Notes under the pieces: model-generated
Told to the model about the DNA's origin: nothing
The model's input: the letters and a program-made list of their open reading frames with translations, nothing else
Databases searched by the model: none
Source of the DNA: a virus
Virus record (IMG/VR): IMGVR_UViG_3300012953_000013
Location: 64,001-128,000 of that record
DNA: 64,000 bases
Strand: one strand, 5' to 3'
Part shown: positions 9,080 to 31,766 of the stretch, piece after piece
Position numbering within the stretch: position 1 is the stretch's first letter
Layout of the letters: the number at the start of each line of letters is the position of its first letter
Program-made: the position numbers and the translations under genes

Positions 9080-10177
9080 TTAACCGTTTAAGATACCAGC
9101 CAATTTATTCCATCTTTCCATAATTCTCTGGTCTGTAGAGCTAACACTTTCTTTTTGCTGGTTTCCTAGAGCGTTTCCGATTGCTGTCAAAGCAGGAATC
9201 AAATCATCAGCGTTTCCATCAACTACATGCACGTTACTATGGTTAAGACCGCCGCCAGTACCGATAAAAGCTCCAGACCACCGGTGGTGACCATCTAAAA
9301 TCTCTCCAGCGGAAGTTACAAAAGCCCCGCCCATATCTGAAAGATCTGTATTTCCAGTCCCTTGGAGGAAGGCAAACAAGAGAGATTTACCGGCAAGAAT
9401 ATTACTTTGGGTTGGAACCATCTTGGAGTTAGCAAGAGATCCACCGACTTGAACTTGAATGTTGTCATCTTTTTCGTTGCCATCATGCTTTCCTTTAACT
9501 AGAAAAGCGAGGGCTTTACCAACAGGATCTGCGCCACCGCCAGCACCGACTAACTTTCCAGGCCCAGGGAATTTATCTTCTTTAAAAAGACCCTCTTTTT
9601 TTACCTCTGGTTCTTTTCCACCAGCTATAGCTTCTTGATCTTTGTCTGATAGAGAACTTATCCAAGCATCAACACTCTCTTCCCCACCAGCATAATCTGC
9701 TTCGAGGTCTATGTTGAATCTTCCGCCCGGAGACAGGGCGTCTTTAACAGCAGGAGCGTCGTCGCCTTCAAGAGCAGGCATCTGGTTCTTGGGTAGGCCG
9801 CTTCCTGGCAAAGCACTTCCGACTTTAGATATTCTAGAAGCTAACTCGCTCTCTCCTGTCTCTTCAGCCCAAGCCTTGATAGCCTCTGCTCCACCGGCTT
9901 TTCCAACTGCACCTGCAGACCAGCTTGTTGCATTCATCATAGCTTGGATAAGAGGAGCGTTTTCATCTCCAGAACTTAACTGCTTATAAGCTTCAGCCCC
10001 ATCAAGGTCAGCAATATTAGTACTAGTGTCAACAGCAGCAAAATTGGCCGCAGCCTCTTCTTCTTGTTCTCTTAATACAGCTCTATATTCTTCTAAAATA
10101 ATCTTTCTAAGATCTCTTGAATCAATTTTTTTAGCTGGCTTCTTAAAGCCATAAATTTCCGAAAGCGTCTTTGCCAT
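9080..10177 (-). CDS. Acidic virion-type protein with C-terminal ParB/sulfiredoxin-like domain
   Basis: LRKIILEE leader; MVPTQSNI and EILDGHHRW motifs; ends RWNKLAGILNG. Confidence 0.6.
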   Translation of the reverse strand: MAKTLSEIYGFKKPAKKIDSRDLRKIILEEYRAVLREQEEEAAANFAAVDTSTNIADLDGAEAYKQLSSGDENAPLIQAMMNATSWSAGAVGKAGGAEAIKAWAEETGESELASRISKVGSALPGSGLPKNQMPALEGDDAPAVKDALSPGGRFNIDLEADYAGGEESVDAWISSLSDKDQEAIAGGKEPEVKKEGLFKEDKFPGPGKLVGAGGGADPVGKALAFLVKGKHDGNEKDDNIQVQVGGSLANSKMVPTQSNILAGKSLLFAFLQGTGNTDLSDMGGAFVTSAGEILDGHHRWSGAFIGTGGGLNHSNVHVVDGNADDLIPALTAIGNALGNQQKESVSSTDQRIMERWNKLAGILNG

Positions 10178-10188
10178 TTTAATATCTC

Positions 10189-10629
10189 CTATGCGAAATC
10201 GCCATTAACTAGTTTACCAGACACAGATTTCATAGCAGCTAATACTACCTTACGAATCTCTACTGTTATATCATTTTCTAAATCATACGACGCTGCGTCC
10301 ACTTGCTCTCTCCACCAATCTTTGGCTTCAGCCTGGCTCATTTCACCGTCATTTGTCATGGAAGGATCACCGGGATCATAGGCGCTCATTTCCATATCAT
10401 GCCACTTATCGACTAATTCTCCAACAGAGCTGTCCCAAGCAATTCTTGGCCAATGGTGGTCTCCATTAGATCCATCTGGATTTTCTAAATCGATTTCGTC
10501 TAGACTCCCAGACTCATTTTCTGTATCAAGACCTGGCTTAACTCCGCCACCAGCCTCAGTTTCTTCTAGAAGAATTCTAATTTTTTCTTCTTTAATAATT
10601 CTTCGCAATTGATTCTTGGATAATTTCAT
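10189..10629 (-). CDS. Acidic putative virion protein
   Basis: MKLSKNQLRRIIKEE leader; ATAATTA upstream. Confidence 0.6.
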   Translation of the reverse strand: MKLSKNQLRRIIKEEKIRILLEETEAGGGVKPGLDTENESGSLDEIDLENPDGSNGDHHWPRIAWDSSVGELVDKWHDMEMSAYDPGDPSMTNDGEMSQAEAKDWWREQVDAASYDLENDITVEIRKVVLAAMKSVSGKLVNGDFA

Positions 10630-10648
10630 TATAGCGCTCCCGTATGCA

Positions 10649-11062
10649 TTAATTATATAGCTTAAAGCCCATTATTTCAGATATCTTTTCAGTCAACACT
10701 TCTGGGTCTTCTTCTGACTCTTTTAATAAAGCGTCGATTTTCTCTTTTTTATCTTCTTCCAAGTCATCAGAAAGCTCTGCATATCTTTTTTCGACATCTT
10801 CGATAGTTTTTTTGTATTTATCATTTGCTTTCTGAAGCTCTTCTATTTCTTTGAGACGCGATTTTTCAATCGCGTCCAACTCTTTTTCGTGATCTTCTCT
10901 GATTCTGCTTAAAACTTTTCCAGCACCAGAGCCTCTTCCAGCCAAAATCATTATAACAATTGGAATAGCAGCGCCTACTAATAGCTGCCAATATTTCTTA
11001 CACCAAGCCCAGGCTTTTTTAAGCCACGTCTTGAATGTTAGCCATGCGATTGCCGCAGTCAT
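10649..11062 (-). CDS. i-spanin-like membrane protein
   Basis: N-terminal TM (LLVGAAIPIVIMILAG) then long charged coiled coil; follows holin-like gene. Confidence 0.55.
   Translation of the reverse strand: MTAAIAWLTFKTWLKKAWAWCKKYWQLLVGAAIPIVIMILAGRGSGAGKVLSRIREDHEKELDAIEKSRLKEIEELQKANDKYKKTIEDVEKRYAELSDDLEEDKKEKIDALLKESEEDPEVLTEKISEIMGFKLYN
10650..10656 (-). promoter_or_regulatory. ATANTTA motif (ATAATTA)
   Basis: 21 nt upstream of start 10629. Confidence 0.4.
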
Positions 11063-11316
11063 TATCTTTTAAACCCGTGCTTCCAAGAAACTGCAGCATC
11101 TATAACAGTTTGACCACCGATATAAATAGCTGCAATCATTCCCCAGATATCCGGAGTAAGTGTACTCCATATCATCAAACCAGTTGCTGTCAAGAAAACA
11201 AAAAACTTTCTAGAAATCATCCGACCCAAAATTTGGTCTAAAATCCCAAGTTTTTCTCCCTCAATCAAAGCCTTGGCTTCTTTAATATCAATATTATTAT
11301 CTGCCATGTTTATCAT
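11062..11316 (-). CDS. Holin-like small membrane protein
   Basis: 84 aa, SRKFFVFL then two short TM segments, basic C-terminus. Confidence 0.55.
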   Translation of the reverse strand: MINMADNNIDIKEAKALIEGEKLGILDQILGRMISRKFFVFLTATGLMIWSTLTPDIWGMIAAIYIGGQTVIDAAVSWKHGFKR

Positions 11317-11325
11317 CTCAATCTC

Positions 11326-11640
11326 CTAATTCCAGTTATTTCCATCGTCGTCATCGTCATCATCTTTATCTCTGAAAGAAAAACGGAATTCATTTTTGTT
11401 GACAGGTTTCATCAACGCATAAAGTACATCTTGGAGACTGGTAACCTCTTCAGCTAATCCTTGATAAGTGGTAAGAATTAGCTGCAAAGAAACTTGAACG
11501 TCTTTGAGGTTTGTTTTTATTTGTTCAAGCTCTAAATTACTTTGGAGTAACTTGTTTTCAAGCTCTGAGTTTTTGAGCGTCATCTCCTGAACTCTCTTTT
11601 CTAACTCACTATAGTTCCCTTTAAAAAATTTATCTAACAT
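11326..11640 (-). CDS. Coiled-coil hypothetical protein
   Basis: Heptad-rich middle, acidic tail. Confidence 0.6.
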   Translation of the reverse strand: MLDKFFKGNYSELEKRVQEMTLKNSELENKLLQSNLELEQIKTNLKDVQVSLQLILTTYQGLAEEVTSLQDVLYALMKPVNKNEFRFSFRDKDDDDDDDGNNWN

Positions 11641-11924
11641 CAGCGACCCTCCAGAGGGTTTTCTTGATTGATCGCGTCAAAAATACTTTCAGCATCTGTT
11701 GAGTTGACTTTCTTTTCAAAAACCCTGTTCTTTTTATTATATTCGATTTCATCAAGAAATTTAGTAAGGGTCTCATCCCCATCAACTATTTTCACTGCAA
11801 GAAATTCAAAAACCTCCTGCATAGAAAGCTCTCTCTTAAACAAAGCCATTCTAAACTCTGTGTGAGTGTCTTTGTTAAGATTTATATGAATTGATTTTTT
11901 AAGTTGAAAGGGACTTGATGTCAT
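11640..11924 (-). CDS. Ribbon-helix-helix-like DNA-binding protein
   Basis: KKSIHINL strand then two helices (THTEFRMALFK, MQEVFEFLA). Confidence 0.5.
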   Translation of the reverse strand: MTSSPFQLKKSIHINLNKDTHTEFRMALFKRELSMQEVFEFLAVKIVDGDETLTKFLDEIEYNKKNRVFEKKVNSTDAESIFDAINQENPLEGR

Positions 11925-12652
11925 TAAACAGCTCCGCCTCCACCGCCACCGCCAGCGCCAACTGCAAGCGGAGCAGCTACTTCTATGTCTTCTAATTCTT
12001 CTATCTCTGAATCAAAATCTAAATCATGGCGCAATCTCAAAATTTCTGCAAAAGCTTCAGCAACTTCTTCACCATACTTTATCATTAAAAACTCTTTTGC
12101 TTTGTTAAAGATAATAGATTCCATATCCATTAAAGTTTGATAATTCATTATCAGTCTTGCGACGTCACTGGAAAAAAGCTCAATATCTAATTCATTCTCT
12201 GAAACGATTTCTTCTTCGACTGTTGCTGGTTCTTCTTGCTCAAACAGCAAATCACTCAAATTTCTACTGTACCACTCGTTAGTAGAGTCTGTGACAACAT
12301 CTTCTACGACTTCTTCTTTTGCAATTACGTGAATTTGAGCGCTTTTTAAAGCATTCACTTCATAATCTTGAAGTATTGAATCGAGCGCTATATCGAATTG
12401 TTTTCCAAGCCTGACTTCGTCTCCAGCTTCAATAGCGACAACTTCTTCTTCTTCTTCAGCTGCTGCTTCGCCTTCTTCGCCGCCTTCTTCGCCAGTATCT
12501 TCAGCTGCTTCATCACCTTCAGCTGCTTCATCGTCTCCGTCTGCTGCATCATCGCCGCCAGCGTCGTCTCCGAACAAATCTTCTTCTTCATCTTGCTCAG
12601 TCAATAAGTTATATTGGCGTTGAAAAAATTCTTTTAGTTGTTCTCTTTTCAT
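11924..12652 (-). CDS. Highly acidic putative virion/scaffold protein
   Basis: MKREQLKEFF..LLTEQ leader, D/E/G/A low complexity, NLSDLLFEQ motif, poly-Gly tail. Confidence 0.6.
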   Translation of the reverse strand: MKREQLKEFFQRQYNLLTEQDEEEDLFGDDAGGDDAADGDDEAAEGDEAAEDTGEEGGEEGEAAAEEEEEVVAIEAGDEVRLGKQFDIALDSILQDYEVNALKSAQIHVIAKEEVVEDVVTDSTNEWYSRNLSDLLFEQEEPATVEEEIVSENELDIELFSSDVARLIMNYQTLMDMESIIFNKAKEFLMIKYGEEVAEAFAEILRLRHDLDFDSEIEELEDIEVAAPLAVGAGGGGGGGAV

Positions 12653-19687: not shown

Positions 19688-20251
19688 TTAAGGGTTAAAG
19701 TGTAAAAAACACTTCGGCTGATACATTTCTGACCCACCGACTTCAATTTGATGGTCTGAACGACCTCCGATTTTTTTTGTATAGTGTGCATCTAATCCGC
19801 AGGTTGAACATACTGCAGGGCAAACTTCTATTTTGGTTGCATAGGGCATCATTTCTTGCATTTCTTTATAAGGAGTAAAATCAGAAGAAAGCTGCAGAGA
19901 AGAAGCTAAGATAGTATGACCCTCTTTGAACAAAGAAACCAGAACTTCTCCCACTCCATCTATCATAAAAGCTTCGTCGACAGCAATTACAAAAGTTTCG
20001 TCTTCTTCTTGCCAAGCTGTGGCTTCTCTCAAATACCTTAGCAGCTCTTTGCCATCACCAATCCTTTTGGCAGATAGTTTGCCGCCCCAATGAGTGACAA
20101 TTTCTTCTTTAGAATAACGCTCATCAACATTTGGTTTAAATGCCAATATATTTCTACCTTGGTATGTGTACCTGTCTATAGCGCTTAAAAGCTTTGTAGT
20201 TTTCCCTCCAAACATTGGACCCACAAATAGCGTAAATTCATTATTCATCAA
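19688..20251 (-). CDS. tdk: Thymidine kinase
   Basis: GPMFGGKTT P-loop, VDEA, CSTC and GG.E.YQPKC. Confidence 0.9.
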   Translation of the reverse strand: MMNNEFTLFVGPMFGGKTTKLLSAIDRYTYQGRNILAFKPNVDERYSKEEIVTHWGGKLSAKRIGDGKELLRYLREATAWQEEDETFVIAVDEAFMIDGVGEVLVSLFKEGHTILASSLQLSSDFTPYKEMQEMMPYATKIEVCPAVCSTCGLDAHYTKKIGGRSDHQIEVGGSEMYQPKCFLHFNP

Positions 20252-21233
20252 ACCCCCACCAAGAAAAAGTCTTTTCCAGACCGCTTATTAAACTATATTT
20301 TGGGAAGAACCCTAATTCTCTCTCTGCTTTTTTAGTACATGCTAAAGTGTGTTTTACGTCTCCAGGGCGAACTGGAGCATTTACAATCTCAACGCCAGGA
20401 AACTTTTCTTTAAAAATATCTAAAATATCATTATTTGAATAAGATTTTCCTGTACCTATATTAATTCTATCACCACAGAAATTTTGTTCACGAATAGCTG
20501 CTAAAATATTTGCCTCAGCAACATCTTCTACAAAAACCATATCTCTAGTTTGAGTGCCATCGCCATCACTTCTTAATGGCAAACCCTTTTTAACTTTATC
20601 GCACCAAGAAACAACAGCAGTCGAGTAAGGAGAATCACCGTATTGGTTAGGACCAAATACGTTAAAATATCTTAGACAAGCAATATCTAAATCATAGGCC
20701 TTAGAATAAAGCCGAGCCCATTCTTCTACATTTAATTTCTGAAGTGCATAAGGACTATTGGGATTTTTCCCGTGATCTTCTGTTGTGGGGAGAGACCACG
20801 GATCTCCATATACAGAGCAGCTTGAAGAAAATACGATCCTTTTGACATTTCCAATAGAGTGGGTAAACAATTGGATTGTTTTCATAAAATTTTCGTGTGT
20901 AGTTTCTACGGGATTCTGAATGGAGTACTCAACTCGGGGATTTGCAGCGCAGTGAAAAATCACGTCATATCTTTGGTCTACGATTCTTCTTATTACTTCT
21001 TGACTTACAAAATCTCCAACTAAAACTAAAATTTGGTCTGGAAAATTCTTGACTTGTTGTTCAAAAATATGCCCCATTTGAGTCGGTACTGTTCTAAAAG
21101 AGTGATCATCTAAGAAAGCATAATCACCATTCGACATGTCATCTACAATCTCAACTTCCCAGCCGTTATCTACTAATTTTTTTGAAATACATGACCCGAT
21201 AAATCCACAACCACCAGTTACAAGCGCTCGCAT
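20241..21233 (-). CDS. NAD-dependent nucleotide-sugar epimerase/dehydratase
   Basis: GGCGFIGS, SSS, YALQK (YxxxK), LRYFNVFGP, TRDMVFVEDVA. Confidence 0.9.
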   Translation of the reverse strand: MRALVTGGCGFIGSCISKKLVDNGWEVEIVDDMSNGDYAFLDDHSFRTVPTQMGHIFEQQVKNFPDQILVLVGDFVSQEVIRRIVDQRYDVIFHCAANPRVEYSIQNPVETTHENFMKTIQLFTHSIGNVKRIVFSSSCSVYGDPWSLPTTEDHGKNPNSPYALQKLNVEEWARLYSKAYDLDIACLRYFNVFGPNQYGDSPYSTAVVSWCDKVKKGLPLRSDGDGTQTRDMVFVEDVAEANILAAIREQNFCGDRINIGTGKSYSNNDILDIFKEKFPGVEIVNAPVRPGDVKHTLACTKKAERELGFFPKYSLISGLEKTFSWWGFDE

Positions 21234-22396
21234 AATACAATTTCCTCCTTCAAGTTATTTTGCATTAAAAAACTTTCTTCTGCCAATTCTAAACCGCCAT
21301 TTAAATATTCAACTACTTGAGTTGTCATATCTCGAGCTGTACATGTTGGAACATTTTGCGCTATTACATTCAACTGTTTTCTATCCGCCATTTCAAAATC
21401 ATGGGGTAAACCCATCATATGCAATAACTCTCTTATTGACATTCCTCTATCTTCTTTGGGATGAACAAGATGAGTAAGAGTTCTTCCAACTATTGCGTTT
21501 GTTCTGTTGTAGTAATATCCCGGAGAAGCGTCCATAAATCTTCCGCCAGACTGAACTTTTTTATAAATAGCTCGAAGCCTGCGATGTTCGGCAGTTTCTT
21601 CTATTCCTCTTTTCTCGATCCATTCAATACACTCTTTTAGTAATTCATTTTCAGCTAAATAAGAAAATATTGAATGAATAGAACCTGAGTCGTTATTTTT
21701 AACAAAATGCTCATGAGTTACACCTAGATGCTGTAATACAAAAGCATACGAATCAAAGTTTTCTGAAATTTTTCCTTCGATATTAAATTGATCTTGTAGT
21801 GAAGCTTCAGCTGGGATCTCTTCAATATAATCTGCAAAAGACGGCATTGGGGTATTGAAATAATTCAAGAGTGGCGGATTTGAATCTCTCCAGAAAAAAT
21901 AAAATGTCCTCACCCTTCTTTGCGGGATGCCATGACGCTGAGTATCTGTCTTATAGAGAGAAAAGGTGTATCCATGCTCTCTAGCTAGACCTTTTAATTT
22001 ATCTCGTACGTACGCGCCCGAATTTGTAAAAAGGCCGGGGGCATTCTCGCCCCAAAAAACTCTTGGACGAACCTGACCCAAAACGGTCCTTGCAGATTCA
22101 TACATCCAATAATTCTTTCCCTCTCTTGTATCTTTGCTTCTAGAAGTATTAAGCTGGCTCAGTCCAGCACATGGACAAACCGAATTTATAAAATCTATAT
22201 CACCACCAGGAATTTTGCCACCTTCATCTAAAACAATTCTTGGAACATCTTCCCAGTAATCTGTAAGATATTTTTCATTTGCTCCAAAAGCAGAATAACT
22301 TAAGTGGTATTCTGGTTTTTTATTTGTCGCTTTATAACACCCTATGGCGCTTCCTCCGACCAGAGGAATAATAGTTCCCCACTTTAAGTTATCCAT
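21218..22396 (-). CDS. C5-cytosine DNA methyltransferase-fold protein with degenerate SAM motif
   Basis: Motif IV CPCAGLS, VI ENAPGL, VIII GIPQRRVR, IX RELLHMMGLP; motif I reads IPLVGG rather than FxGxGG, motif X AQNVP. Confidence 0.75.
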   Translation of the reverse strand: MDNLKWGTIIPLVGGSAIGCYKATNKKPEYHLSYSAFGANEKYLTDYWEDVPRIVLDEGGKIPGGDIDFINSVCPCAGLSQLNTSRSKDTREGKNYWMYESARTVLGQVRPRVFWGENAPGLFTNSGAYVRDKLKGLAREHGYTFSLYKTDTQRHGIPQRRVRTFYFFWRDSNPPLLNYFNTPMPSFADYIEEIPAEASLQDQFNIEGKISENFDSYAFVLQHLGVTHEHFVKNNDSGSIHSIFSYLAENELLKECIEWIEKRGIEETAEHRRLRAIYKKVQSGGRFMDASPGYYYNRTNAIVGRTLTHLVHPKEDRGMSIRELLHMMGLPHDFEMADRKQLNVIAQNVPTCTARDMTTQVVEYLNGGLELAEESFLMQNNLKEEIVLCERL

Positions 22397-22397
22397 A

Positions 22398-23264
22398 TCA
22401 GTCTTCTTCCTTTATTGTATATCCGTATTCTTCAAAATCAACTTTATAATCTACTGCTAACATTTTTTTAATTTTTTCTGAAATGATATTCTCAGTTTTC
22501 ATGTAGCGTATTTTTACAATATTTGAATGAGGGAGAACAGAATCACTCGAAATTATATCTCTATCTTTGAGATCTTTTAATAGATTTTCAAGATCTTCAA
22601 ATTTATAAATTTTTGTTTCAGGAGAAACATACCATCGGCATGGGTTTCTCTGCACACCGCCTCGGCCAAGGTCTGCAGTATTTTTAAAGTAAAATTCTAA
22701 CTGAGCGCCTGGTTCCATATTTCGAAAATCTAAACCGGTTTTTTCATAAAAATTACGGATAGTATATAGAATTTGCGACTCCGCTCTCTGTTTTCCTGGC
22801 AGCTCTATTAGGCTTTCAATATATTTTTTAATTCCAGCATGAGCTTTTTCAACTGGGGCATCTCTAACAGAAACAAATTCGTCTTCATGCGATACTTCTA
22901 AGCCTAATCGATGAAAATGATCCATAAAGTATTTGTCGTCATATGATATTTGCCCCTTTAACATTTTCCACACAGGTTCAACTTCAGTTTCATAATAAAG
23001 GTAGTTAAACCACATATTAAAATGAGAAACAACTCTTGTGTAGGGATGCCTGACAACTGTAAAAGTAAAGCCTGCGTTAACTGCTTCTTTCCAGTCTCTC
23101 CAAACACTATATACTTGGTGTCCTCCACCCACAGGAAAGTAATCTGGTTCTTTTATCCTGGTCCAGCCATTTTCTTCAATTAATTTTCTGACAGACATAC
23201 CTCCACATTTTGGTATGTGGATAAAATGAATGGTCTCACCATTTCTTTCGTAGAGTGGCATCAA
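22398..23264 (-). CDS. Sulfotransferase family protein
   Basis: FIHIPKCGGMSV, VRHPYTRVVSHF. Confidence 0.8.
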   Translation of the reverse strand: MMPLYERNGETIHFIHIPKCGGMSVRKLIEENGWTRIKEPDYFPVGGGHQVYSVWRDWKEAVNAGFTFTVVRHPYTRVVSHFNMWFNYLYYETEVEPVWKMLKGQISYDDKYFMDHFHRLGLEVSHEDEFVSVRDAPVEKAHAGIKKYIESLIELPGKQRAESQILYTIRNFYEKTGLDFRNMEPGAQLEFYFKNTADLGRGGVQRNPCRWYVSPETKIYKFEDLENLLKDLKDRDIISSDSVLPHSNIVKIRYMKTENIISEKIKKMLAVDYKVDFEEYGYTIKEED

Positions 23265-24133
23265 TCACCAACCTTATAATCGAATAACGAATAGTCGTCA
23301 CCATATAAAAACAAAAATACACTTTGAAAGCTTTGTGAAAACTCGCTTAGTGAAAAAGATTCTTTTTTAGATAATGAATATAGCTTTTTATTCTCTACAG
23401 AGAGCCCACGCTTGTACGACTCTTGATTTATTATATTTTTTTCTAAAAGCCTCTCTAATAGATTTTCTTTTTCTTCTAATTTAAAAACTTCAACAGTGGG
23501 ATCTACATAAAGTCTAGAAGGAGTGGGATTACCACCCCCGTGATTTATTTTATGGAACTTATGTTTCAAAAAACTATATAAAAAATTCTCTAGAATAGAT
23601 GATGAATACTTTATGCCTGAAATTTCTTCCCAAGCTGCAGCTAAAACCCTATGTTTATGAATCATATTAGCGTTGCGATCTTCAGATATTAGAGTTGTCA
23701 ATTTCATAAAACTTTTTTGTAGTTCTTCTGGTTTTAAAATAATATCTTTAGGGTAAGAGATACCAAGTTCAGAAAACACTAAATCAATATAATTTAGAAT
23801 AACCCAGTTATATTCGTGCTCTATCCCGTTAATTTGCATCTCCAAAACTTCATATAATCTCTCCATGTAGAGATCACCGTTTGTAGACATCCACATATTG
23901 CAGTGAGATACGATCCTGTCAATCGGGTTTCTAACTAAAGTAAATTTAAATTCGCACTCTTGTATTGCAGGAAAATTTCCCCAACATATTCTCGGTACAT
24001 GCGGAATCCCGCCCACTTCTGCTGGCAAATACTCCCAGTTATTGTCTGTCAAAAGTTTTTTTACAGATGTACCGCCACATTTAGGGATATGAGCAAAAAA
24101 TATTTTTTCATTATCTCTAATAAACGTTGGCAT
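23261..24133 (-). CDS. Sulfotransferase family protein
   Basis: FAHIPKCGGTSV, VRNPIDRIVSH; tandem paralog of previous gene. Confidence 0.8.
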   Translation of the reverse strand: MPTFIRDNEKIFFAHIPKCGGTSVKKLLTDNNWEYLPAEVGGIPHVPRICWGNFPAIQECEFKFTLVRNPIDRIVSHCNMWMSTNGDLYMERLYEVLEMQINGIEHEYNWVILNYIDLVFSELGISYPKDIILKPEELQKSFMKLTTLISEDRNANMIHKHRVLAAAWEEISGIKYSSSILENFLYSFLKHKFHKINHGGGNPTPSRLYVDPTVEVFKLEEKENLLERLLEKNIINQESYKRGLSVENKKLYSLSKKESFSLSEFSQSFQSVFLFLYGDDYSLFDYKVGD

Positions 24134-25638
24134 TACAGTGCTCGATAAATTTTATCTTCTTTAGCGACGACTCCCTTTTTTACTAACTTCTGGAGAATCA
24201 TCCAACTTTCTTTCCAAGTTCCGTTTTGCTTATAGTGAACCAAACCCTTAGATTCAATTACCTTAGCAACCTCAGCGTGTTTACAAGCTCCACCAAGGCT
24301 ATTCATTATTGAAAGTATTTCAAGCTCTTTATTTGTAGCTGAAAAATCTAAACCAGTAGATTCAGACGGTGGTACAGTTGTCACTTCAGGACCTGAAGGT
24401 TCGGGGAGAGATTCTTGTTCCGGAACTTTTGATTCTAGGTCTGGAACACTATCTTCTTTCATAAATCCAAGCTTTTGCATTATGGATTTTGGCGTAATAA
24501 TCATTTTAACTTCCTCTTTTGAAATTGGGGCTGAAGCCCTTCGATTAGCAAGTTTCTTGTCTTCTCTAAGCTTTCTGTAAACACCAAACTGACAACAAGA
24601 AATTTCGCAACCAAAATTTGTAAAATATCCAAGCTCTGAAACTTTTTTCATATAGTAATCTGATTTATCAGAGCTCTTTAAATCAAAAAAACTGTTTTGA
24701 TGACGTCTTATAGCATTAATAAGCTTTTTTCCAACTTTGTCGTTAATCGAATGACCGCGATGTTCATAAAACCAGTTTATTGCATTCATCGCACCGACTC
24801 CAGGAACCACATAATCGTCATCTTCATCAATGTTTCCCGGCATTCCCTCAAATATTAAATTACCAACTTCTGGCATACGAGCCAAGTTACAGCTAAAGTG
24901 ATAACCGTAATAATTTCCAATCCCTTTATATGAATTTAGAAATTTAAATGACTCTTCCATCGTTGGCTTAGTTTTATAAAATTCAACCCATTGAGGGCCC
25001 AAAAAAGTAAACCAAAATAAAATATCTGATGGTCTAAGCATTCTTTTGGACCGATCGATGGCTGATGTTTTCTCCAAAATGTCAATTGGTGATCCTACAC
25101 TTCTAGCGTAGTTTCTAGCTGAGGTTTGTAAGCTGGTCCTAAGCTCAGTTGTTCCATAGATTTTTTCTTTATTTTTAACTACTTCTTCTATGTTTACGCA
25201 GAGTTTCTCTAGATATTTTGGATCATTGATAAACTTTTTATATACAACAAAATCATCTCCTGTACCCTCAACCATCATTTTAAGGGTCTTCGATGGCCCA
25301 TAGAATTTCACAATTGCAGCGTTAATAAGCTTATCTTCAAAAGTTGCTTTGGGGTTATAGAATAGGTTCTCGTTTAACCAGATAATCTCATCGTGAAAGC
25401 TACGGTTAGGGTGGAAGTAGGGAACTGACTTTCCATCAACTATAAACCCAAGCTTATACAAAAGAACTTTGTTTGGTTCGTGTTGAAACGTATCAAATGT
25501 GCAAGACTTTGCAAACCTAACAAGATATTCTCTTCGATTCAACTCTTTAATAAAATGAACAAAATCATCTTTCTTATACTGAGGGATTTCATCGAAGAGT
25601 TCTTCGTCTGTATATTTTAAAAGCTCTCTATTGCTCAT
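24133..25638 (-). CDS. 5-hmdU DNA kinase helical / aGPT-Pplase1-like protein with C-terminal winged-helix-like domain
   Basis: YFHPNRSFHDEIIWL, GIGNYYGYHFSCNL, VVPGVGA..AINWFY, FGCEISCCQFGVY match the family pattern as I recall it; Pro/Glu linker then wHTH-like tail. Confidence 0.65.
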   Translation of the reverse strand: MSNRELLKYTDEELFDEIPQYKKDDFVHFIKELNRREYLVRFAKSCTFDTFQHEPNKVLLYKLGFIVDGKSVPYFHPNRSFHDEIIWLNENLFYNPKATFEDKLINAAIVKFYGPSKTLKMMVEGTGDDFVVYKKFINDPKYLEKLCVNIEEVVKNKEKIYGTTELRTSLQTSARNYARSVGSPIDILEKTSAIDRSKRMLRPSDILFWFTFLGPQWVEFYKTKPTMEESFKFLNSYKGIGNYYGYHFSCNLARMPEVGNLIFEGMPGNIDEDDDYVVPGVGAMNAINWFYEHRGHSINDKVGKKLINAIRRHQNSFFDLKSSDKSDYYMKKVSELGYFTNFGCEISCCQFGVYRKLREDKKLANRRASAPISKEEVKMIITPKSIMQKLGFMKEDSVPDLESKVPEQESLPEPSGPEVTTVPPSESTGLDFSATNKELEILSIMNSLGGACKHAEVAKVIESKGLVHYKQNGTWKESWMILQKLVKKGVVAKEDKIYRAL

Positions 25639-26047
25639 GCAAATCCTCTAAGTGCCTTCTGTTTTCTTTAGCAACGTGAGGGTTGTTAACATGAATCACT
25701 TTCGTTCCAATATTCCAGGTTTCTACTTCATTTAATTTTCTTTCTATCTCAGCTTTTTGAACTTCATCATCTTCAAAAAAATATTGAACGCTGAGTCCTG
25801 CTCTATGGAGAATCTTAATAGTTTCTCCTTTGTGCCACCCTGAACTCTGACGAGTTTTTTCTGAGTAGTCACATTGATTAAAGAAAACTGGGTTATTAAT
25901 TCCATTACGACGAAGAAAAGCCAAAGTTTCAGCTTCTTCTTCATAACTACGACCAGTGATAATTACATCTCCTGGGCCTGGACGAATTCCACAAACTCCA
26001 TCGCCAAGATGGATAACGCCATCAATATCAAAACCGTTAACCTTCAT
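25628..26047 (-). CDS. Small capless HAD phosphatase
   Basis: FDIDGV, ITGR, HK, FEDD. Confidence 0.8.
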   Translation of the reverse strand: MKVNGFDIDGVIHLGDGVCGIRPGPGDVIITGRSYEEEAETLAFLRRNGINNPVFFNQCDYSEKTRQSSGWHKGETIKILHRAGLSVQYFFEDDEVQKAEIERKLNEVETWNIGTKVIHVNNPHVAKENRRHLEDLHEQ

Positions 26048-26756
26048 TGAATTCTCCTCTTTTTCTTATAAAAAACTGAGTGCCTAAAATCATCATGTCT
26101 AAAGACCTTGTGTCACACCAAACCCTATAATGAGGAGATAGAGCCTGGCCGTTTCCTGGGTTGAGCATTTCGCTTAAACCAATTAGTTTCGTATTCCCAG
26201 TCTTCCAAGCAATTAAAGTATTCTCGTGTGGAGGAGTCAAACCAATAGACATTGCAAATTGATTGACTGCTTCTACAGCTCCCCAATCTGATTTTTGTGT
26301 ATAATCATCTCCAGTTATCCAACCGCCCGGCTTAAGTTTTGGCCACCAACTCTCAAGATCTATTTTTACAGCTTCATACCTATGGTCGCCATCAATGTAA
26401 ATCCAGTCAAAATAATTGTTAGAAAAATTCTTAGCAGCGTTTTCAGAAAAATCTCTGTATACAGAAATCTTGGTTTCATCGCTGCTCATCTCATCAGCCC
26501 AATTTTTTACTTTTTGAAACCTAGCATCTTGTTCTTCTTGAGAGTCTTTTGCGTGTTGGTCGTGCTGATCTGTTTGCTGCACCCAAGGGTCTACTAAGTG
26601 AATTTCTGACGGGTTTTTGGAAAAAATCTTGCGAGAAAATGCGCCATTGAAAACACCTATTTCTGCACACTTAGCTCCCTGGGCTATTTTTTCTAAAACC
26701 CTGTCTTCGTAGACTCTTTCTCCTGGATTTTCTTTTTTGAAATTATCTCTAAGCAT
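26037..26756 (-). CDS. Class I SAM methyltransferase (Methyltransf_24-like)
   Basis: AEIGVFNG, VDPW, YIDGDHRYEAV..DL..W..L.PGG.I.GDDY. Confidence 0.85.
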   Translation of the reverse strand: MLRDNFKKENPGERVYEDRVLEKIAQGAKCAEIGVFNGAFSRKIFSKNPSEIHLVDPWVQQTDQHDQHAKDSQEEQDARFQKVKNWADEMSSDETKISVYRDFSENAAKNFSNNYFDWIYIDGDHRYEAVKIDLESWWPKLKPGGWITGDDYTQKSDWGAVEAVNQFAMSIGLTPPHENTLIAWKTGNTKLIGLSEMLNPGNGQALSPHYRVWCDTRSLDMMILGTQFFIRKRGEFNEG

Positions 26757-27468
26757 TATCTTTCCTAAAGAAAGTATAGTCTAAAACTTTCGTTGTTCCA
26801 TACATTAAAATTGGATGTTCTACCTTCTTCCACTTAGACTCTGGAAAAAACAGACTAGGATATTGATCAAAAGGAGAACGAGTGTTATGAAATTCAATGC
26901 CAACAATTTCAACAAAATCCGGAATTTTTGGAATAGAATCTAGGATATCGTACTCTTTGCCTTCAATATCAATCTTTAATATTTCTGGTCGGTATTTTTC
27001 TAAAAGACTAGAAAAAGAAATCCCGGGGACTGAAATAGTAGTAGAAGATGCATTCCTTCTCCGAAGAGTTGATGAAGAAACAGAATTACGCTTGGATTTA
27101 GCGTAGTGAAAAACTACTTCATTTTCATCTTCTTCACACACTGCGGCGTTAATACACTCTACACCCGGGGCATTAATTTCCAAAAGTTGAAAATTATGAG
27201 GGCAGGGCTCGAGTGCAATAATCTTCTTTGCGCCGTTATCCAAACACATCTTAGCAAATCCACCAATATTGGCCCCAAGGTCTAATACGGTTTTGCCTTC
27301 AACTGGAATGCATGTGTAATTGTCTATACACTCCTTAATTGAACTCAAATCAAATGTATCGGGACGATACCACATCCCTTTTCTTGAGTTCCATTTTATT
27401 TCGCACTCTTCGAAGGCTGGTACAGCTGGATTAAACCGCATGCCCGTCTGTTCGTGGATTTTAGCCAT
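26749..27468 (-). CDS. FkbM-family SAM methyltransferase
   Basis: VLDLGANIGGF, LEP, NAAV, LKIDIEGKEY. Confidence 0.85.
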   Translation of the reverse strand: MAKIHEQTGMRFNPAVPAFEECEIKWNSRKGMWYRPDTFDLSSIKECIDNYTCIPVEGKTVLDLGANIGGFAKMCLDNGAKKIIALEPCPHNFQLLEINAPGVECINAAVCEEDENEVVFHYAKSKRNSVSSSTLRRRNASSTTISVPGISFSSLLEKYRPEILKIDIEGKEYDILDSIPKIPDFVEIVGIEFHNTRSPFDQYPSLFFPESKWKKVEHPILMYGTTKVLDYTFFRKDNA

Positions 27469-28658
27469 TAATCTACCTCTTTGTTATGAGATGGACAAAT
27501 CTTATAAAGCTCTTCAGCGTCGTAAGAAGATGTCTGCCTCTTTGTGAATCTGGTTAATTGTCGCTCTGAAAGTGCATCACATTCATAAAGCGTTTCGCTA
27601 AACATAAGTTGTTGTGGAGGAGTTTTTTGCGTAAATGCTGACGGGCCTCGAAGAGCACCAACAATCCCCATTTCTCTAGCGGTCTTGAGATAACGAACTG
27701 CATCAATAACAACTCCGCCAGAGTTTGGAGAATCAATTACAGAGAGTCGAGCATCAAAAGTTACCGGAGCGCCAAGAAACCCTTCCATCTCTACTCTAAA
27801 ATTAGCAACCTTGTTATCTCCATAATAGCGAATGTATTCTGAAGGTCCCGCATGGAGAAATGACTCATCTGGGTCGACTCCCCGAATTACATGTTGAGAG
27901 CGAATAACGTTTTCCTTAGATACCTTTTTATACTTGAGGCGCGATTGATCGACCATGTTCAAGAAATCAGTGTTTCCGCCAACATTTCTCTGAATATGAG
28001 CTTTAACATTTAAGCCGCGAGCAAAGGCCAGTTCTTGTAGCATTTGAGAAAGAATAGAAGCTCCAAACTGTGATTTCATATCATCACCAATTAATGGAAT
28101 TCCAGCATCGATAAACTTTTGTTCCCACTCTGGATTAGAAGCAATAAATACGGGAATGCAGTTTAGTAGAGAAACACCAGCATCTAGACAAGCTTGGGCG
28201 TAATACTCTGTAGCTTTCTGAGACCCAACTGGAAGATAATTGATTAGAATATCAACCTTGCGATCTTCTAGTATCTGAACCACATCTACGGGCTCTTCAT
28301 TTGAAACTCTGAAGGCTTCATCATCTGGATAATCACTCATCAAGCTTGGTACCCCATCAAGCACTGGACCCATTTGAACTATTGGACCATCAGGTACATT
28401 CGCTTCGTATTCTGGAGTACAGTTTGGCTTAGCCCACATTGCTTCCCTAAAACACTTACCGACTTTTCGCTTATCTACGTCAAATGCAGCCACAACCTCA
28501 ATATTCGCAACTGAGTATCCGCCAATTCGAGACTTCATTACTCCGTCTCTTTCTTGGCCGGCTGTATATCCAGCATAGTATGTTAAACCTTGATAAAGCG
28601 AATTTGCGCAGTTTCCGACGCCTACAATTGCTACTCTAATATTTTGCTTTTTACTCAT
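27468..28658 (-). CDS. ino1: Inositol-3-phosphate synthase (MIPS)
   Basis: VAIVGVGNCA, FDVD..KVG, NYLPVGS, NCIPVFIAS, GDDMKSQFGA, GGNTDFLNM, SK..SK, DSPNSGGVVIDAVR. Confidence 0.93.
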   Translation of the reverse strand: MSKKQNIRVAIVGVGNCANSLYQGLTYYAGYTAGQERDGVMKSRIGGYSVANIEVVAAFDVDKRKVGKCFREAMWAKPNCTPEYEANVPDGPIVQMGPVLDGVPSLMSDYPDDEAFRVSNEEPVDVVQILEDRKVDILINYLPVGSQKATEYYAQACLDAGVSLLNCIPVFIASNPEWEQKFIDAGIPLIGDDMKSQFGASILSQMLQELAFARGLNVKAHIQRNVGGNTDFLNMVDQSRLKYKKVSKENVIRSQHVIRGVDPDESFLHAGPSEYIRYYGDNKVANFRVEMEGFLGAPVTFDARLSVIDSPNSGGVVIDAVRYLKTAREMGIVGALRGPSAFTQKTPPQQLMFSETLYECDALSERQLTRFTKRQTSSYDAEELYKICPSHNKEVD

Positions 28659-28681: not shown

Positions 28682-29746
28682 TTATTCTTTATTATGTCGC
28701 GGGTTGGGTTGATTGTTAAATAAATCCCAGTAATAAGACATCGGACTCAAATGAACACTTTTTGGGCGTTCCATATATTCAAAATCAAGCTCCCCCGATT
28801 CATTCAAAAATCCCGGTGGCCACTCAAAAGTTTGCCACTTATTCTCTATTGATATTTTATCAACAGCAGCATTAAATGTATTGACTAACTTTGTTCTTTC
28901 TTCCCAAGTTCCAAAATATGGAGTCTTCTTATAATATCCAGTTTTAGGGAGCTTTCTAGAAATATTTTCTATTGGAAGAGCATGAACAATCTCAACGTTT
29001 GGAACTCCAAGAGACTTAAGCTGGTGCCCGAGCTCGATTCCCATCGCGTGGGCTTTCTCAAACGGGTTTTCTTGCCTCATGAGGTGATGGCGAATATCAA
29101 TATTCCCCATATAGAAAGTCAAGTGAGTCAAATCGCTTACTTTCATACCAGATTTTTCTTCAATAATTTCTTTTACACCGTCGCGTATAGTAGAAAAAAG
29201 AGTAAGGCCATCATTTCGGCATACAGAATAACCGGGTTTCCAAGTAGAAAAACAATGGCTATCTCCGAAACAAAGTTTTGTAGTTTCTTCAACATGATTA
29301 AACCCCGGAGTTCTTTTACAAATTTCATCAAGCTTGTTTAAGTCTAGCTGGCCGACATTAGCACTTGTGGATTTATTATGCAATCTTCCCCTGATGGTCG
29401 TTCCAATGAGCGGCATCTCATGATTCATAATGTACGTGGGGCCAGAAAACTCTTGAATTCTCTTGAATCTACGAACTACGTTATCGTCGACGCCAAAGAA
29501 AAAGTTAATTGTGCCAGCATAAGCAATCCCGGGATAAAAAATCATGGCATCATACCCTTCATAGGTATCATGGTTTCCAAGAATAGTTACGTCTGTCCAG
29601 CCTGATGAATGGAGCATATTTTTATAAAGCCATACCCAAGCTGCATTGTGGCTATGCTTTCGGGTTGGAATATTTCGCTCTAGTCCATCAATTCCGATCT
29701 TAGCATCTTTTGGAAGATCTGATGCGACTTCTAAAAATGTTTTCAC
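28682..29746 (-). CDS. Uncharacterised phage protein: beta-glucosyltransferase-like N-domain plus SGNH-like C-domain (tentative)
   Basis: GTG 29746 after CAGGAG RBS; N-part KIGI..YDAMIF..TINFFFG; C-part GDSH, GNID, SVH. Confidence 0.5.
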   Translation of the reverse strand: MKTFLEVASDLPKDAKIGIDGLERNIPTRKHSHNAAWVWLYKNMLHSSGWTDVTILGNHDTYEGYDAMIFYPGIAYAGTINFFFGVDDNVVRRFKRIQEFSGPTYIMNHEMPLIGTTIRGRLHNKSTSANVGQLDLNKLDEICKRTPGFNHVEETTKLCFGDSHCFSTWKPGYSVCRNDGLTLFSTIRDGVKEIIEEKSGMKVSDLTHLTFYMGNIDIRHHLMRQENPFEKAHAMGIELGHQLKSLGVPNVEIVHALPIENISRKLPKTGYYKKTPYFGTWEERTKLVNTFNAAVDKISIENKWQTFEWPPGFLNESGELDFEYMERPKSVHLSPMSYYWDLFNNQPNPRHNKE

Positions 29747-29747
29747 A

Positions 29748-30188
29748 TTAAACTCCTGTGCTGCCAAAGCCGCCAGCACCACGGGTTGTAGTTGAATAAA
29801 AAAGCTCTTTATCTGGCACTACTTTTACATCAGGATACTTGACTGGCAACAATAAAAATTGAACAATTTTTTCTCCTCCCTCTAAAGCTACCGGCTCTGT
29901 ACCAGAATTCATGAGGTGCAGATGAATTTCGCCCTGGTAGTCTTCATCAACGACGCAAGCTCCCACTGTTAACTTCTTTTTCAGAGCTACGCCACTCTTG
30001 TTGTGAGCTACAAAAGCGTAGCCTTTAGGGACATTAACTCTGATTCCAGATGGAATACAGACGTCTCCTCCTGGAGGCACGCTTGCTGATAAGCCATCAG
30101 GTACATAAAAGTCTAGACCTGCAGATCCAGGGGTTCCTCGAGTCGGCGTCTTTACTTCTCTAGTTTTTGACATTTTTATGTTTTTCAT
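29748..30188 (-). CDS. dut: Trimeric dUTPase
   Basis: SAGLDF, KSG, VVDEDYQGE, KIVQ, RGAGGFGSTG. Confidence 0.95.
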   Translation of the reverse strand: MKNIKMSKTREVKTPTRGTPGSAGLDFYVPDGLSASVPPGGDVCIPSGIRVNVPKGYAFVAHNKSGVALKKKLTVGACVVDEDYQGEIHLHLMNSGTEPVALEGGEKIVQFLLLPVKYPDVKVVPDKELFYSTTTRGAGGFGSTGV

Positions 30189-30431: not shown

Positions 30432-30614
30432 TTATTGAAACTTTACGTAATCTTTAAGCAAACTGTCAATGCTTTTAATAACTTGTTCACAAAGCACTGA
30501 AGTATGCTTCGTATTCATAACTGAAGTTGAAGAATGCTTCTCTTCAAGCCCATCATAGAATTCAATAACGTGCCTTCGAAGCTTCACCAACTTTTCAATC
30601 TCTTCATTTTTCAT
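30432..30614 (-). CDS. Small hypothetical protein
   Basis: ATG 30614 (MKNEEIEKLVKL) after AGGAG RBS. Confidence 0.55.
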   Translation of the reverse strand: MKNEEIEKLVKLRRHVIEFYDGLEEKHSSTSVMNTKHTSVLCEQVIKSIDSLLKDYVKFQ

Positions 30615-30888
30615 TACTTCTCCTTTTTTCATTGATGTAATTTTGCCATCCCCCAATATAAGCAACAGCGTCTAGTAAATTGTCTTCTTTAAAATTGTAA
30701 GACTGCCTAGAAAACTTGAGAGCAATCATGGCGATAAACATATCGTCCGCGGTCCAGTTTCGACCTGACATCCCACTAGCAATCATTGCAGCGCGCTCAA
30801 AACCTTCGCCCAAGGGACCATATTGACGCTCTTTTTCTTCTGAGCGATTATTGATTATTTCATCTGCTTGTTTTAGAATATTAGCCAT
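30604..30888 (-). CDS. DUF6378-like small helical protein (possible nucleotide pyrophosphohydrolase)
   Basis: A..I...R.....YG......A..........M.ALK..R......DN..D...Y pattern. Confidence 0.6.
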   Translation of the reverse strand: MANILKQADEIINNRSEEKERQYGPLGEGFERAAMIASGMSGRNWTADDMFIAMIALKFSRQSYNFKEDNLLDAVAYIGGWQNYINEKRRSNEK

Positions 30889-31750
30889 TGAAAATAACTC
30901 CCTTTATTTTGTTTACGTGATCAAATATTTCAGATTTTTCCATATCACTAGATGGAAGCTCTGCTGACAAAGATAAAAGCTTTTTATAAGTTAGATCTGG
31001 CTTTAAAACCGTTTTATCAGTTTGGGGATAATGACCACCCAAAACGCTTACATAATAATTGTCTAAAATCTTATCCATCATCTTAAAGTGTCTCTCATAA
31101 ATGTGAAAACTTCCTGCATTATGATAATATGTCCCAAGATGGAGATTCATGCCGTGATCGTTTAAGTGATTAAGCATCAACTGTTGAAAAAGAGCGAATG
31201 TAAAAACATCGTTGCAAAAACCAAAAATGGCATCATTAGATCTCATATAGACGCCCATATCCAAAACACCTTCTCTTATAAAAAACTGAATATATTGAGT
31301 ACATGGATAATCTTTAGAATTTTTTTCTTTATGATATGGCTGGTTAATTGCTATAGTTGCTCTCCTGGTGTCTGGATCGCTTACTAGCTCATTTACAACC
31401 CAATTCCATTGAGAAATATACATTTTGTTCAAAACAGGAAAAATATAAGACCCATAATTTGACTCTGCTTCGCCAAATTGGTCTTGGATATCAGCCCAAA
31501 TAGATGCAAGCTTAGATATGTTGTTTACTTTTTGGTTTGAAGATACGTACCAAAGCCACTCTGCAATAGCATAATTTATGTTAAATTTTCGAGCAGGAAC
31601 AATAATATCTAGCTGTTCAGGGTTCTTAATTTGAAAGGAAACAAATGTTCTTTCTAGCTGTTTAGAGCCCCTAGAATGAACTATATTTCCGGCCATTTTT
31701 AGTTTAGCTAGCTCTTCAACGAAAGCTTCATTTAGATTATAGTACATCAT
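30881..31750 (-). CDS. Thymidylate-synthase-fold dCMP hydroxymethylase-like enzyme
   Basis: AEWLWY, SNYG, RRA, PCT, RSNDAIFGFCND, GSFHIYERH; Asp at the base-specificity position as in T4 gp42; ATG 31750 after AGGTGG. Confidence 0.8.
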   Translation of the reverse strand: MMYYNLNEAFVEELAKLKMAGNIVHSRGSKQLERTFVSFQIKNPEQLDIIVPARKFNINYAIAEWLWYVSSNQKVNNISKLASIWADIQDQFGEAESNYGSYIFPVLNKMYISQWNWVVNELVSDPDTRRATIAINQPYHKEKNSKDYPCTQYIQFFIREGVLDMGVYMRSNDAIFGFCNDVFTFALFQQLMLNHLNDHGMNLHLGTYYHNAGSFHIYERHFKMMDKILDNYYVSVLGGHYPQTDKTVLKPDLTYKKLLSLSAELPSSDMEKSEIFDHVNKIKGVIFNG

Positions 31751-31766
31751 TTTTACCACCTATAGA

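Follow-up and report, generated by a model that had tools for sequence, protein, structure and literature searches.

A virus-only branch of C5-methyltransferase-fold enzymes tied to cytosine-type thymidylate synthase homologs, with a possible role in processing 5-hydroxymethylcytosine

A protein of the cytosine C5-methyltransferase fold, encoded in a stretch of marine phage DNA, belongs to a virus-only clade that is tied to thymidylate synthase (TS) homologs of the cytosine type. The stretch, hereafter the window, comprises 64,000 nucleotides, positions 64,001 to 128,000 of the 184,866-bp IMG/VR virus record IMGVR_UViG_3300012953_000013. Phages are known to reach C5-modified cytosine in two ways, one at the nucleotide level through a TS homolog, and one at the DNA level through a methyltransferase with or without TET. 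The clade unites both routes in one cassette, an apparent redundancy unless the methylase-fold enzyme has some new function. What might it do? We tentatively read the window gene as encoding a catalytically competent, base-flipping DNA enzyme, and the clade, with the same reserve, as a fixed part of gene sets that would replace cytosine with 5-hydroxymethylcytosine (5hmC, or hmC) before replication. The reaction that we prefer for it, short of calling it probable, is the processing of 5hmC in DNA.

Association with cytosine-type thymidylate synthase

Does the partnership with TS hold for the clade as a whole? Two sets of loci were compared. The clade set contained 80 viral loci plus loci from assemblies, phage records and two contigs of metagenome-assembled genomes (MAGs), in total 88 loci and 1.55 Mb, and the control set contained 80 viral loci (1.15 Mb) found with an alignment of four canonical C5-methyltransferase sequences. 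Note that a scan in which the Nostoc phage N1 methylase was the only control query returned no viral loci, and that a scan with Dcm returned enterobacterial prophages only, a poor control, with 42 Dcm-like loci lacking TS. A TS homolog occurs within 10 kb of the methylase in 30 of the 88 clade loci, and all 30 have Asp at the specificity position (Asp-type TS); one of them, L065, reads RSNC where the others read RSND. The canonical loci contain a single TS, which is of the Asn type, and an Asp-type TS in none of the 80 (Fisher's exact p = 5e-10). When whole records were searched, an Asp-type TS was present in 10 of the 10 long virus records checked, including the cultured S-TIM5, XG4 and Bacillus phage G. 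The original prediction had asked whether this divergent clade always goes with an Asp-type TS, and these counts answer in favour of the link. In records G001-G004 the Asp-type TS lies 30-50 kb from the methylase, beside a separate true ThyA, and it is also found in G005-G007, cyanophage S-TIM5 and Pseudoalteromonas phage XG4. The complete control records G010 and G011 have no TS or the Asn type only. In the 389-kb virus record G004 (locus L095), one in-frame TGA stands inside the gp42-like TS match, and a full ThyA is encoded in the same record.

The cultured Bacillus phage G (497 kb; L150/L233) encodes a distant relative of the clade, gp301, with CPCSGLS, ENAPTL and AQGVP. Its gp42-like Asp-type TS is at 233481-234188, about 13 kb from gp301, and a normal ThyA is encoded as well. 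We know of no report on the DNA bases of Bacillus phage G, and a search of the literature on DNA modification in S-TIM5 gave nothing useful. The company of the methylase differs greatly from lineage to lineage. It follows a T4-type alpha-glucosyltransferase and a cytidylyltransferase in L001, stands among glycosyltransferases, LicD and a pyruvyl transferase in L079, belongs to a large sugar-nucleotide cluster in L085, and is nearly alone in S-TIM5. In L071 there are two tandem clade paralogs (9962-11182 and 11182-12378) in a glycosyltransferase-rich cluster with an Asp-type TS and a gene resembling the alpha-glucosyltransferase (AGT) of T4. In at least seven lineages of differing gene order the methylase is tightly packed or overlapping with its cluster neighbours. 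Since gene orders vary so widely between lineages, the link between methylase and TS is not one inherited block.

The clade is virus-only and almost absent from cells. With one genome taken per species, 185,579 prokaryotic species gave two clade matches, both on MAG contigs, and one of these contigs carries a triad of methylase, epimerase and Asp-type TS. The window protein has the features that define the clade, namely IPLxGG, PCAGLS, ENAP and xQNVP, with an Asp-type TS in the same genome. Two eukaryote-looking fusions of the clade were seen on short metagenome contigs (P0125, P0239), one with a CXXC zinc finger and one with C2H2 fingers and a Tet_JBP oxygenase; the relatives P0121 and P0123 have long low-complexity tails. 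Our search of the literature on C5-methyltransferase and TET modules, on TS-based pathways to hmC and 5-hydroxycytosine and on CmoX found no description of a C5-methyltransferase-fold enzyme as constant partner of dCMP hydroxymethylase, and the MetaGPA paper does not mention the pairing of methylase and TS.

Is the TS homolog of this genome really of the cytosine type, as the original prediction had presumed? When its segment MRSNDAIFGFCND is aligned to MRSNDVVFGFRND of T4 gp42, Asp stands at the position of ThyA Asn177 (equivalent to Asp179 of gp42), and its best solved relatives are the CMP hydroxymethylase MilA (E 7.7e-30) and gp42 (PDB 1b49, 2e-20), followed by ThyA (about 1e-15); this supports the premise. 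The motif D-x-x-C-T surrounds its catalytic Cys, as in gp42 (DFMCT); of the TS enzymes that partner the clade, only two, from S-TIM5 and a MAG contig, lack it. Asp169 is kept, which sets the protein apart from the newly described 5-hydroxy-dCMP synthases with their D169N signature (PMC13326640). The Asp-type TS of S-TIM5 (gp076; L004/L101) and that of the Microbacteriaceae MAG contig L236 have a ThyA-like CPPCH context, and these two may be dCMP methylases rather than hydroxymethylases.

Fold, motifs and cofactor pocket

The open reading frame of 392 amino acids was confirmed at exactly 21218-22396 on the minus strand of the window, and every motif listed in the original prediction was found again on re-translation (Table 1). 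The protein matches Pfam PF00145 with 69.1 bits (E 5.9e-19), above the curated cut-off of 22, and also PHROG 116 'DNA methyltransferase'; its gene is the sole PF00145 gene in the record. The Pfam match spans residues 58-341 only, and the ends with motif I and motif X lie outside it. An AlphaFold2 model built with 25 homologs has a mean pLDDT of 90.4, with disorder limited to the catalytic loop (residues 76-83), as is common without DNA. Structural comparison (VIA) of model residues 1-368 gave Z scores of 22-25 to DNMT1, the prophage CP-933R methylase 3g7u, CmoX (8yf3), HaeIII and HhaI; for HhaI, HaeIII, DNMT1 and CmoX, 270-330 residues were aligned with root-mean-square deviations of 2.8-3.8 A. 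CmoX is among the best matches (Z 24.4), and Dnmt2 structures reach about 20.6. By the model and the comparison together, the two-domain C5-methyltransferase fold is present. The protein also has a large target-recognition domain and a motif IX typical of DNA enzymes.

A search gave 1666 homologs at E < 1e-5; when representatives at 50% identity were searched exhaustively, 295 clusters had E below 1e-30. Conservation was measured on 250 of those sequences, which are 31-88% identical to the window protein (median 41%). Residue equivalences are given in M.HhaI numbering and were obtained with hhalign, using the Nostoc phage N1 methylase as canonical partner, and with MAFFT, using Dcm and other phage enzymes. 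The PC nucleophile, EN and QxRxR had been described as intact, and they are so throughout the set: Cys76 is conserved in 99%, and Glu117, Arg161 and Arg163 in 100%. Conservation of these four residues at 99-100% argues for catalysis.

The cofactor side departs from the canonical pattern. Instead of FxGxGG, motif I reads (I/V)-P-L-x-G-G, in which the stacking Phe and the first Gly are replaced and the GG pair is kept; motif X has Ala-Gln347-Asn in place of Gly-Asn; and motif II retains the ribose-binding acid as N40-E41. These features are highly conserved (P11, L12, G14 and G15 97-98%; F37 94%; N40 96%; residue 41 Glu or Asp in 97%; Ala77 87%, with Gln at this position in none; Ala119 99%; Gln347 and Asn348 98% each). 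By hhalign and MAFFT, I10 corresponds to F18 of M.HhaI, P11 to A19, L12 to G20, G14-G15 to G22-G23, N40-E41 to N39-E40, A77 to Q82 and A119 to V121; Q347 corresponds to N304 (HMMER alignment to MET1; MAFFT). The first-residue offsets of the structural matches, which place model residue 1 at HhaI 9 and CmoX 16, agree with this mapping provided that gaps are absent near the start. Motif II is preceded by a clade-specific insertion of about nine residues, which contains the conserved F37. The position of the adenine-stacking Phe (CmoX F25) is aliphatic in the clade, and the ribose-binding Glu (CmoX E47) is retained.

What do these positions do in known enzymes? The motif II acid E40 of HhaI binds the cofactor ribose. 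In CmoX, E47 does so, and Arg350, at the position of the motif X Asn, holds the carboxylate of carboxy-S-adenosylmethionine (Cx-SAM) (PMC12783734). In M.HhaI, the group to be transferred is enclosed by Gln82, Tyr254 and Asn304; the Q82A variant methylates about 16-fold less, and the N304A variant has a strong preference for larger groups (PMC3526304). Given the mapping to Q82 and N304, it is precisely at the residues facing C5 and the transferred group that the clade departs from canonical enzymes. With M.HhaI, M.HaeIII and the catalytic domain of DNMT1 it shares the fold over residues 1-368, the Cys, the Glu of ENx, QxRxR, motif IX, the Asn-Glu of motif II and the GG of motif I. It differs from them by the fixed changes F18 to I/V, G20 to L, Q82 to A, V121 to A and N304 to Q and by the nine-residue insertion, and it has no restriction partner, is restricted to viruses and goes with the Asp-type TS.

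The site for S-adenosylmethionine (SAM) had been called degenerate in the original prediction, with SAM-free chemistry in mind. This does not agree with the information content, which averages 2.36 bits per column in the N-terminal 60 residues, compared with 2.6-2.8 in the catalytic blocks and 1.67 in the target-recognition domain. A site without ligand would drift, and that of the clade has not; hence it is not degenerate. Because the N-terminal cofactor region is conserved like the catalytic motifs and the motif II acid is kept in 97%, a cofactor is very probably still bound by the clade enzymes. As far as alignments can tell, the pocket is one that was rebuilt and then frozen, not a product of chance or decay.

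Possible function and alternative explanations

Then why would a rebuilt pocket go together with the synthesis of hydroxymethylated cytosine? The enzyme probably does more than plain methylation. In the mechanism that we propose, the conserved residues would work as in M.HhaI: a cytosine-type base would be flipped out, Cys76 would attack C6, Glu117 would protonate N3, and Arg161 and Arg163 would hold O2. A ribose-bearing, SAM-like cofactor would be bound through E41 and the GG loop, which again is read from conserved residues, and I10, L12, A77, A119 and Q347 would form a pocket rebuilt around the transferred group. The substrate would be 5hmC already in phage DNA, at particular sequences. After covalent activation at C6 the hydroxymethyl could leave as formaldehyde or through an exocyclic methylene and be replaced, most simply by the methyl of the cofactor, giving 5-methylcytosine (5mC) or C at chosen sites. 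Such converted sites would no longer be open to decoration by the tailoring enzymes. Coupling to a nucleophile would be an alternative outcome. In its full form, this makes the protein a candidate for a natural 5hmC-rewriting enzyme, whose Cys-C6 chemistry would remove or exchange the hydroxymethyl at chosen sequences to give 5mC, C or a new C5-methylene adduct, and which would be a widespread core of viral hmC pathways; we consider this possible, not probable. The idea of an editing enzyme, which the original prediction had offered, is retained as part of the preferred reading and is equally provisional.

Removal and exchange of the hydroxymethyl are carried out weakly in vitro by canonical C5-methyltransferases, and this chemistry is so far known only as such a side reaction. 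For example, M.MpeI binds 5hmC DNA covalently and seems to strip off the hydroxymethyl before remethylating, so that covalent attack and hydroxymethyl loss are documented for the fold (PMC11347137). Engineered M.HhaI Q82A/Y254S/N304A is altered at two of the same pocket positions as the clade (PMC3526304). These precedents are laboratory variants or slow side reactions, whereas the changes in the clade are natural, replace Asn by Gln rather than Ala, and are conserved across hundreds of viral lineages. If hmC processing is right, the clade would provide the first hmC-editing enzyme from nature and might serve as a tool to map or rewrite 5hmC. The question can be put to a direct test, since three carriers, S-TIM5, XG4 and Bacillus phage G, are in culture.

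Two better known systems help to place the clade. Phage clusters with a C5-methyltransferase, TET/5mYOX and glycosyltransferases (PMC8256090; bioRxiv 10.1101/2023.12.21.572611) likewise place a C5-methyltransferase among genes for cytosine hypermodification, and an epimerase and glycosyltransferases are often present too. There 5mC is installed at GpC by the methyltransferase and oxidised by TET after replication, whereas here the TS homolog would supply the hydroxymethyl before replication, so that a 5mC writer is apparently redundant. A search for Tet_JBP (PF12851) gave no match in five records and none in the control either, and tblastn with the TET part of P0239 also gave none; neither search shows absence. 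The hmC pathway of T4 (gp42, gp56, gp1, alpha- and beta-glucosyltransferases) resembles the clade cassettes in its gp42-like TS, and some clade relatives have a T4 AGT-like transferase. T4 and its relatives, unlike these cassettes, have no C5-methyltransferase-fold gene in the hmC pathway.

Could the protein be an ordinary SAM-dependent C5-methyltransferase after all? Its targets would then be the cytosines not replaced by hmC, or a specific motif, leaving no phage cytosine unmodified, and the pocket changes would only tune the enzyme for hmC-rich DNA, for example by avoiding a dead-end attack on hmC. We take this explanation, including its account of the pocket, as a serious one that still falls short of an even chance. 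If leftover cytosine is indeed its only substrate, pre-replicative replacement would be routinely incomplete and need a dedicated back-up. Membership in PF00145 with all catalytic residues speaks for it, as do the tandem paralogs of L071, as in sequence-specific methylases, and the ThyA-like CPPCH context of the partner TS in S-TIM5, which may be a dCMP methylase giving the same 5mC. Further points tell against 5hmC processing, and most of them favour the ordinary methylase at the same time. Ordinary SAM binding would account just as well for the conserved motif II acid and GG loop; fusions to CXXC and Tet_JBP domains are what true 5mC writers would show; the reactions of canonical enzymes on 5hmC are slow; and no recognisable dCTPase, of the MazG or PRA-PH type, was found in the record, which is 71% complete, so that some dC may enter DNA and full cytosine replacement in this phage is unproven. 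What an ordinary methylase leaves unexplained is why this clade alone, and none of the 80 canonical loci, is tied to an Asp-type TS, why it is absent from cells and from restriction-modification contexts, and why rewritten residues have become fixed at five pocket positions, among them the counterparts of Q82 and N304. Processing of 5hmC explains the exclusive partnership, and the pocket changes sit where a C5 substituent would be.

Other explanations change the transferred group or the substrate. A CmoX-like alkyltransferase would put a group larger than methyl, taken from a modified SAM, onto unsubstituted cytosine C5. CmoX itself, the C5-carboxymethyltransferase of Synechococcus phage S-B43, is a natural precedent from a marine cyanophage, with the same fold, a replaced motif X Asn and a product that serves as handle for hypermodification (PMC12783734); it is close in structure to our model, and M.HhaI with Ala in place of Q82 prefers extended groups. 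We nevertheless regard this as unlikely. In place of Arg350, the SPPC signature and the partner CmoA that makes Cx-SAM, the window protein has Gln347, which could not pair with a carboxylate as Arg350 does, CPCA, and a partner TS resembling dCMP hydroxymethylase; no CmoA homolog (TIGR00740) was found in the 184,866-bp record, with a positive E. coli control. Assignment to the CmoX type, tried on SPPC, the Arg at the N304 position and CmoA, failed on all three. What is more, no cofactor-modifying gene is common to all clusters, and little free C5 would be left under hmC replacement. Less likely again is a role other than DNA modification, be it hmC binding, regulation, or catalysis on RNA or free nucleotides. 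Dnmt2, a structural match, shows that the fold can act on tRNA; against such a role are the near-invariant Cys76, Glu117, Arg161 and Arg163, the large target-recognition domain with its motif IX, and the place of the gene among DNA-level tailoring genes. The least likely is that the enzyme couples inositol, or the particular adduct of each cluster, to 5hmC, which the original prediction had given as its example. Coupling of nucleophiles to 5hmC by C5-methyltransferases has been reported in vitro, and the gene adjoins genes for inositol-phosphate synthase and for HAD-like and HMUDK-like proteins in the window, L002 and L076-L078. The same enzyme with the same pocket residues occurs, however, in clusters without inositol genes, such as L001 (CTP-transferase and T4-type alpha-glucosyltransferase), L071, L079, L085 (sugar-nucleotide genes) and S-TIM5 (none). 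As the tailoring genes vary while the enzyme and its pocket stay constant, its job must be one common to all these systems, which argues against inositol attachment in particular.

Gene neighbourhood

The gene lies in a long co-oriented operon in the order DNA polymerase III alpha, TS homolog, DUF6378, dUTPase, a 366-aa protein, inositol-1-phosphate synthase, FkbM methyltransferase, Methyltransf_24 enzyme, a small polynucleotide-kinase/HAD-like protein, an HMUDK_hel-like protein, two sulfotransferase-like proteins, the methylase, the epimerase, thymidine kinase, cupin, a DHH protein, a third sulfotransferase-like protein, dCMP deaminase and a second FkbM methyltransferase. The methylase has a Shine-Dalgarno-like AAGGAAG upstream, a 1-nt gap to the preceding sulfotransferase-like gene and an overlap with the following epimerase gene (Table 1). 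Its adjacency to an epimerase recurs in other lineages in either order, and relatives hold other genes in place of the upstream tailoring module.

Table 1. Positions in the window of the methylase gene, its motifs and neighbouring features
Feature	Position	Strand	Basis or remark
C5-methyltransferase-fold gene, 392 aa, virus-only clade	21218..22396	-	open reading frame, PF00145, AlphaFold2, VIA
Motif I variant IPLVGG	22352..22369	-	I10, P11, L12 replace canonical F, x, G; G14-G15 kept
Motif II N40-E41	22274..22279	-	hhalign; aligns with canonical ANE
Motif IV CPCAGLS, Cys76 nucleophile	22157..22177	-	Ala77 at canonical Gln (HhaI Q82)
Motif VI ENAPGL	22031..22048	-	Glu117 kept; Ala119 at HhaI V121 position
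Motif VIII QRRVR (Q159, R161, R163)	21908..21922	-	99-100% conserved
Motif IX RELLHMMG	21410..21433	-	window translation, alignment
Motif X variant AQNVP	21347..21361	-	Gln347 aligns with canonical Asn (HhaI N304; CmoX Arg350)
TS homolog, cytosine/hydroxymethylase type (DYPCT ... MRSNDAIFGFCND)	30881..31759	-	only TS homolog in 184,866-bp record
NAD-dependent sugar epimerase/dehydratase gene	20241..21233	-	overlaps methylase 3' end by 16 nt
Tailoring module of variable content, directly upstream, with two sulfotransferase-like genes and a 5-hydroxymethyldeoxyuridine (5-hmdU)-DNA-kinase-like (HMUDK_hel) gene	22398..25638	-	

Among public sequencing runs, the window stretch is present only in assembled contigs of marine metagenomes and in no raw long reads. 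The CpG and GpC odds ratios of the window and 16 clade loci, compared with 10 control loci, showed only the usual CpG depletion of low-GC DNA and no target motif. A swap site lies between the gene for the 366-aa protein and the methylase (window 22398-28658, compared with L001:8155-10004 and L002:7136-10011). It holds inositol-phosphate synthase, two methyltransferases, a kinase-like gene and two sulfotransferases in the window, inositol-phosphate synthase and the kinase-like gene only in L002, and a cytidylyltransferase with a T4 AGT-like transferase in L001. The three sulfotransferase-like genes of the operon (PF03567; 17592-18317, 22398-23264 and 23261-24133, minus strand) had no counterpart by tblastn in any of the 84 related loci compared. 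In this phage group DUF6378 (30604-30888, minus strand), conceivably the dCTPase of the pathway, always has the Asp-type TS on one side and dUTPase on the other; it is labelled 'phosphofructokinase' in PHROGs; a PDB sequence search gave no solved relative for it, it has no MazG or PRA-PH signal, and an Atlas search returned DUF6378 clusters only.

The 366-aa protein, a core gene of the operon (28682-29782, minus strand), has no Pfam or PDB sequence match. Its AlphaFold2 model has a pLDDT of 81; the N-terminal half is unmatched, and the C-terminal half resembles SGNH esterases and O-acetyltransferases (Foldseek: Axe2, sialate O-acetylesterase and PatB, with E about 1e-3 and prob 1.0). The HMUDK-like protein (24133-25638) has a 5-hmdU-DNA-kinase-like domain, here inside a cytosine-type cluster. 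Both proteins match PHROG 17781 (795 positions), the 366-aa protein at positions 11-335 and the HMUDK-like protein at 372-779; they are therefore probably fused in some phages and probably work together.

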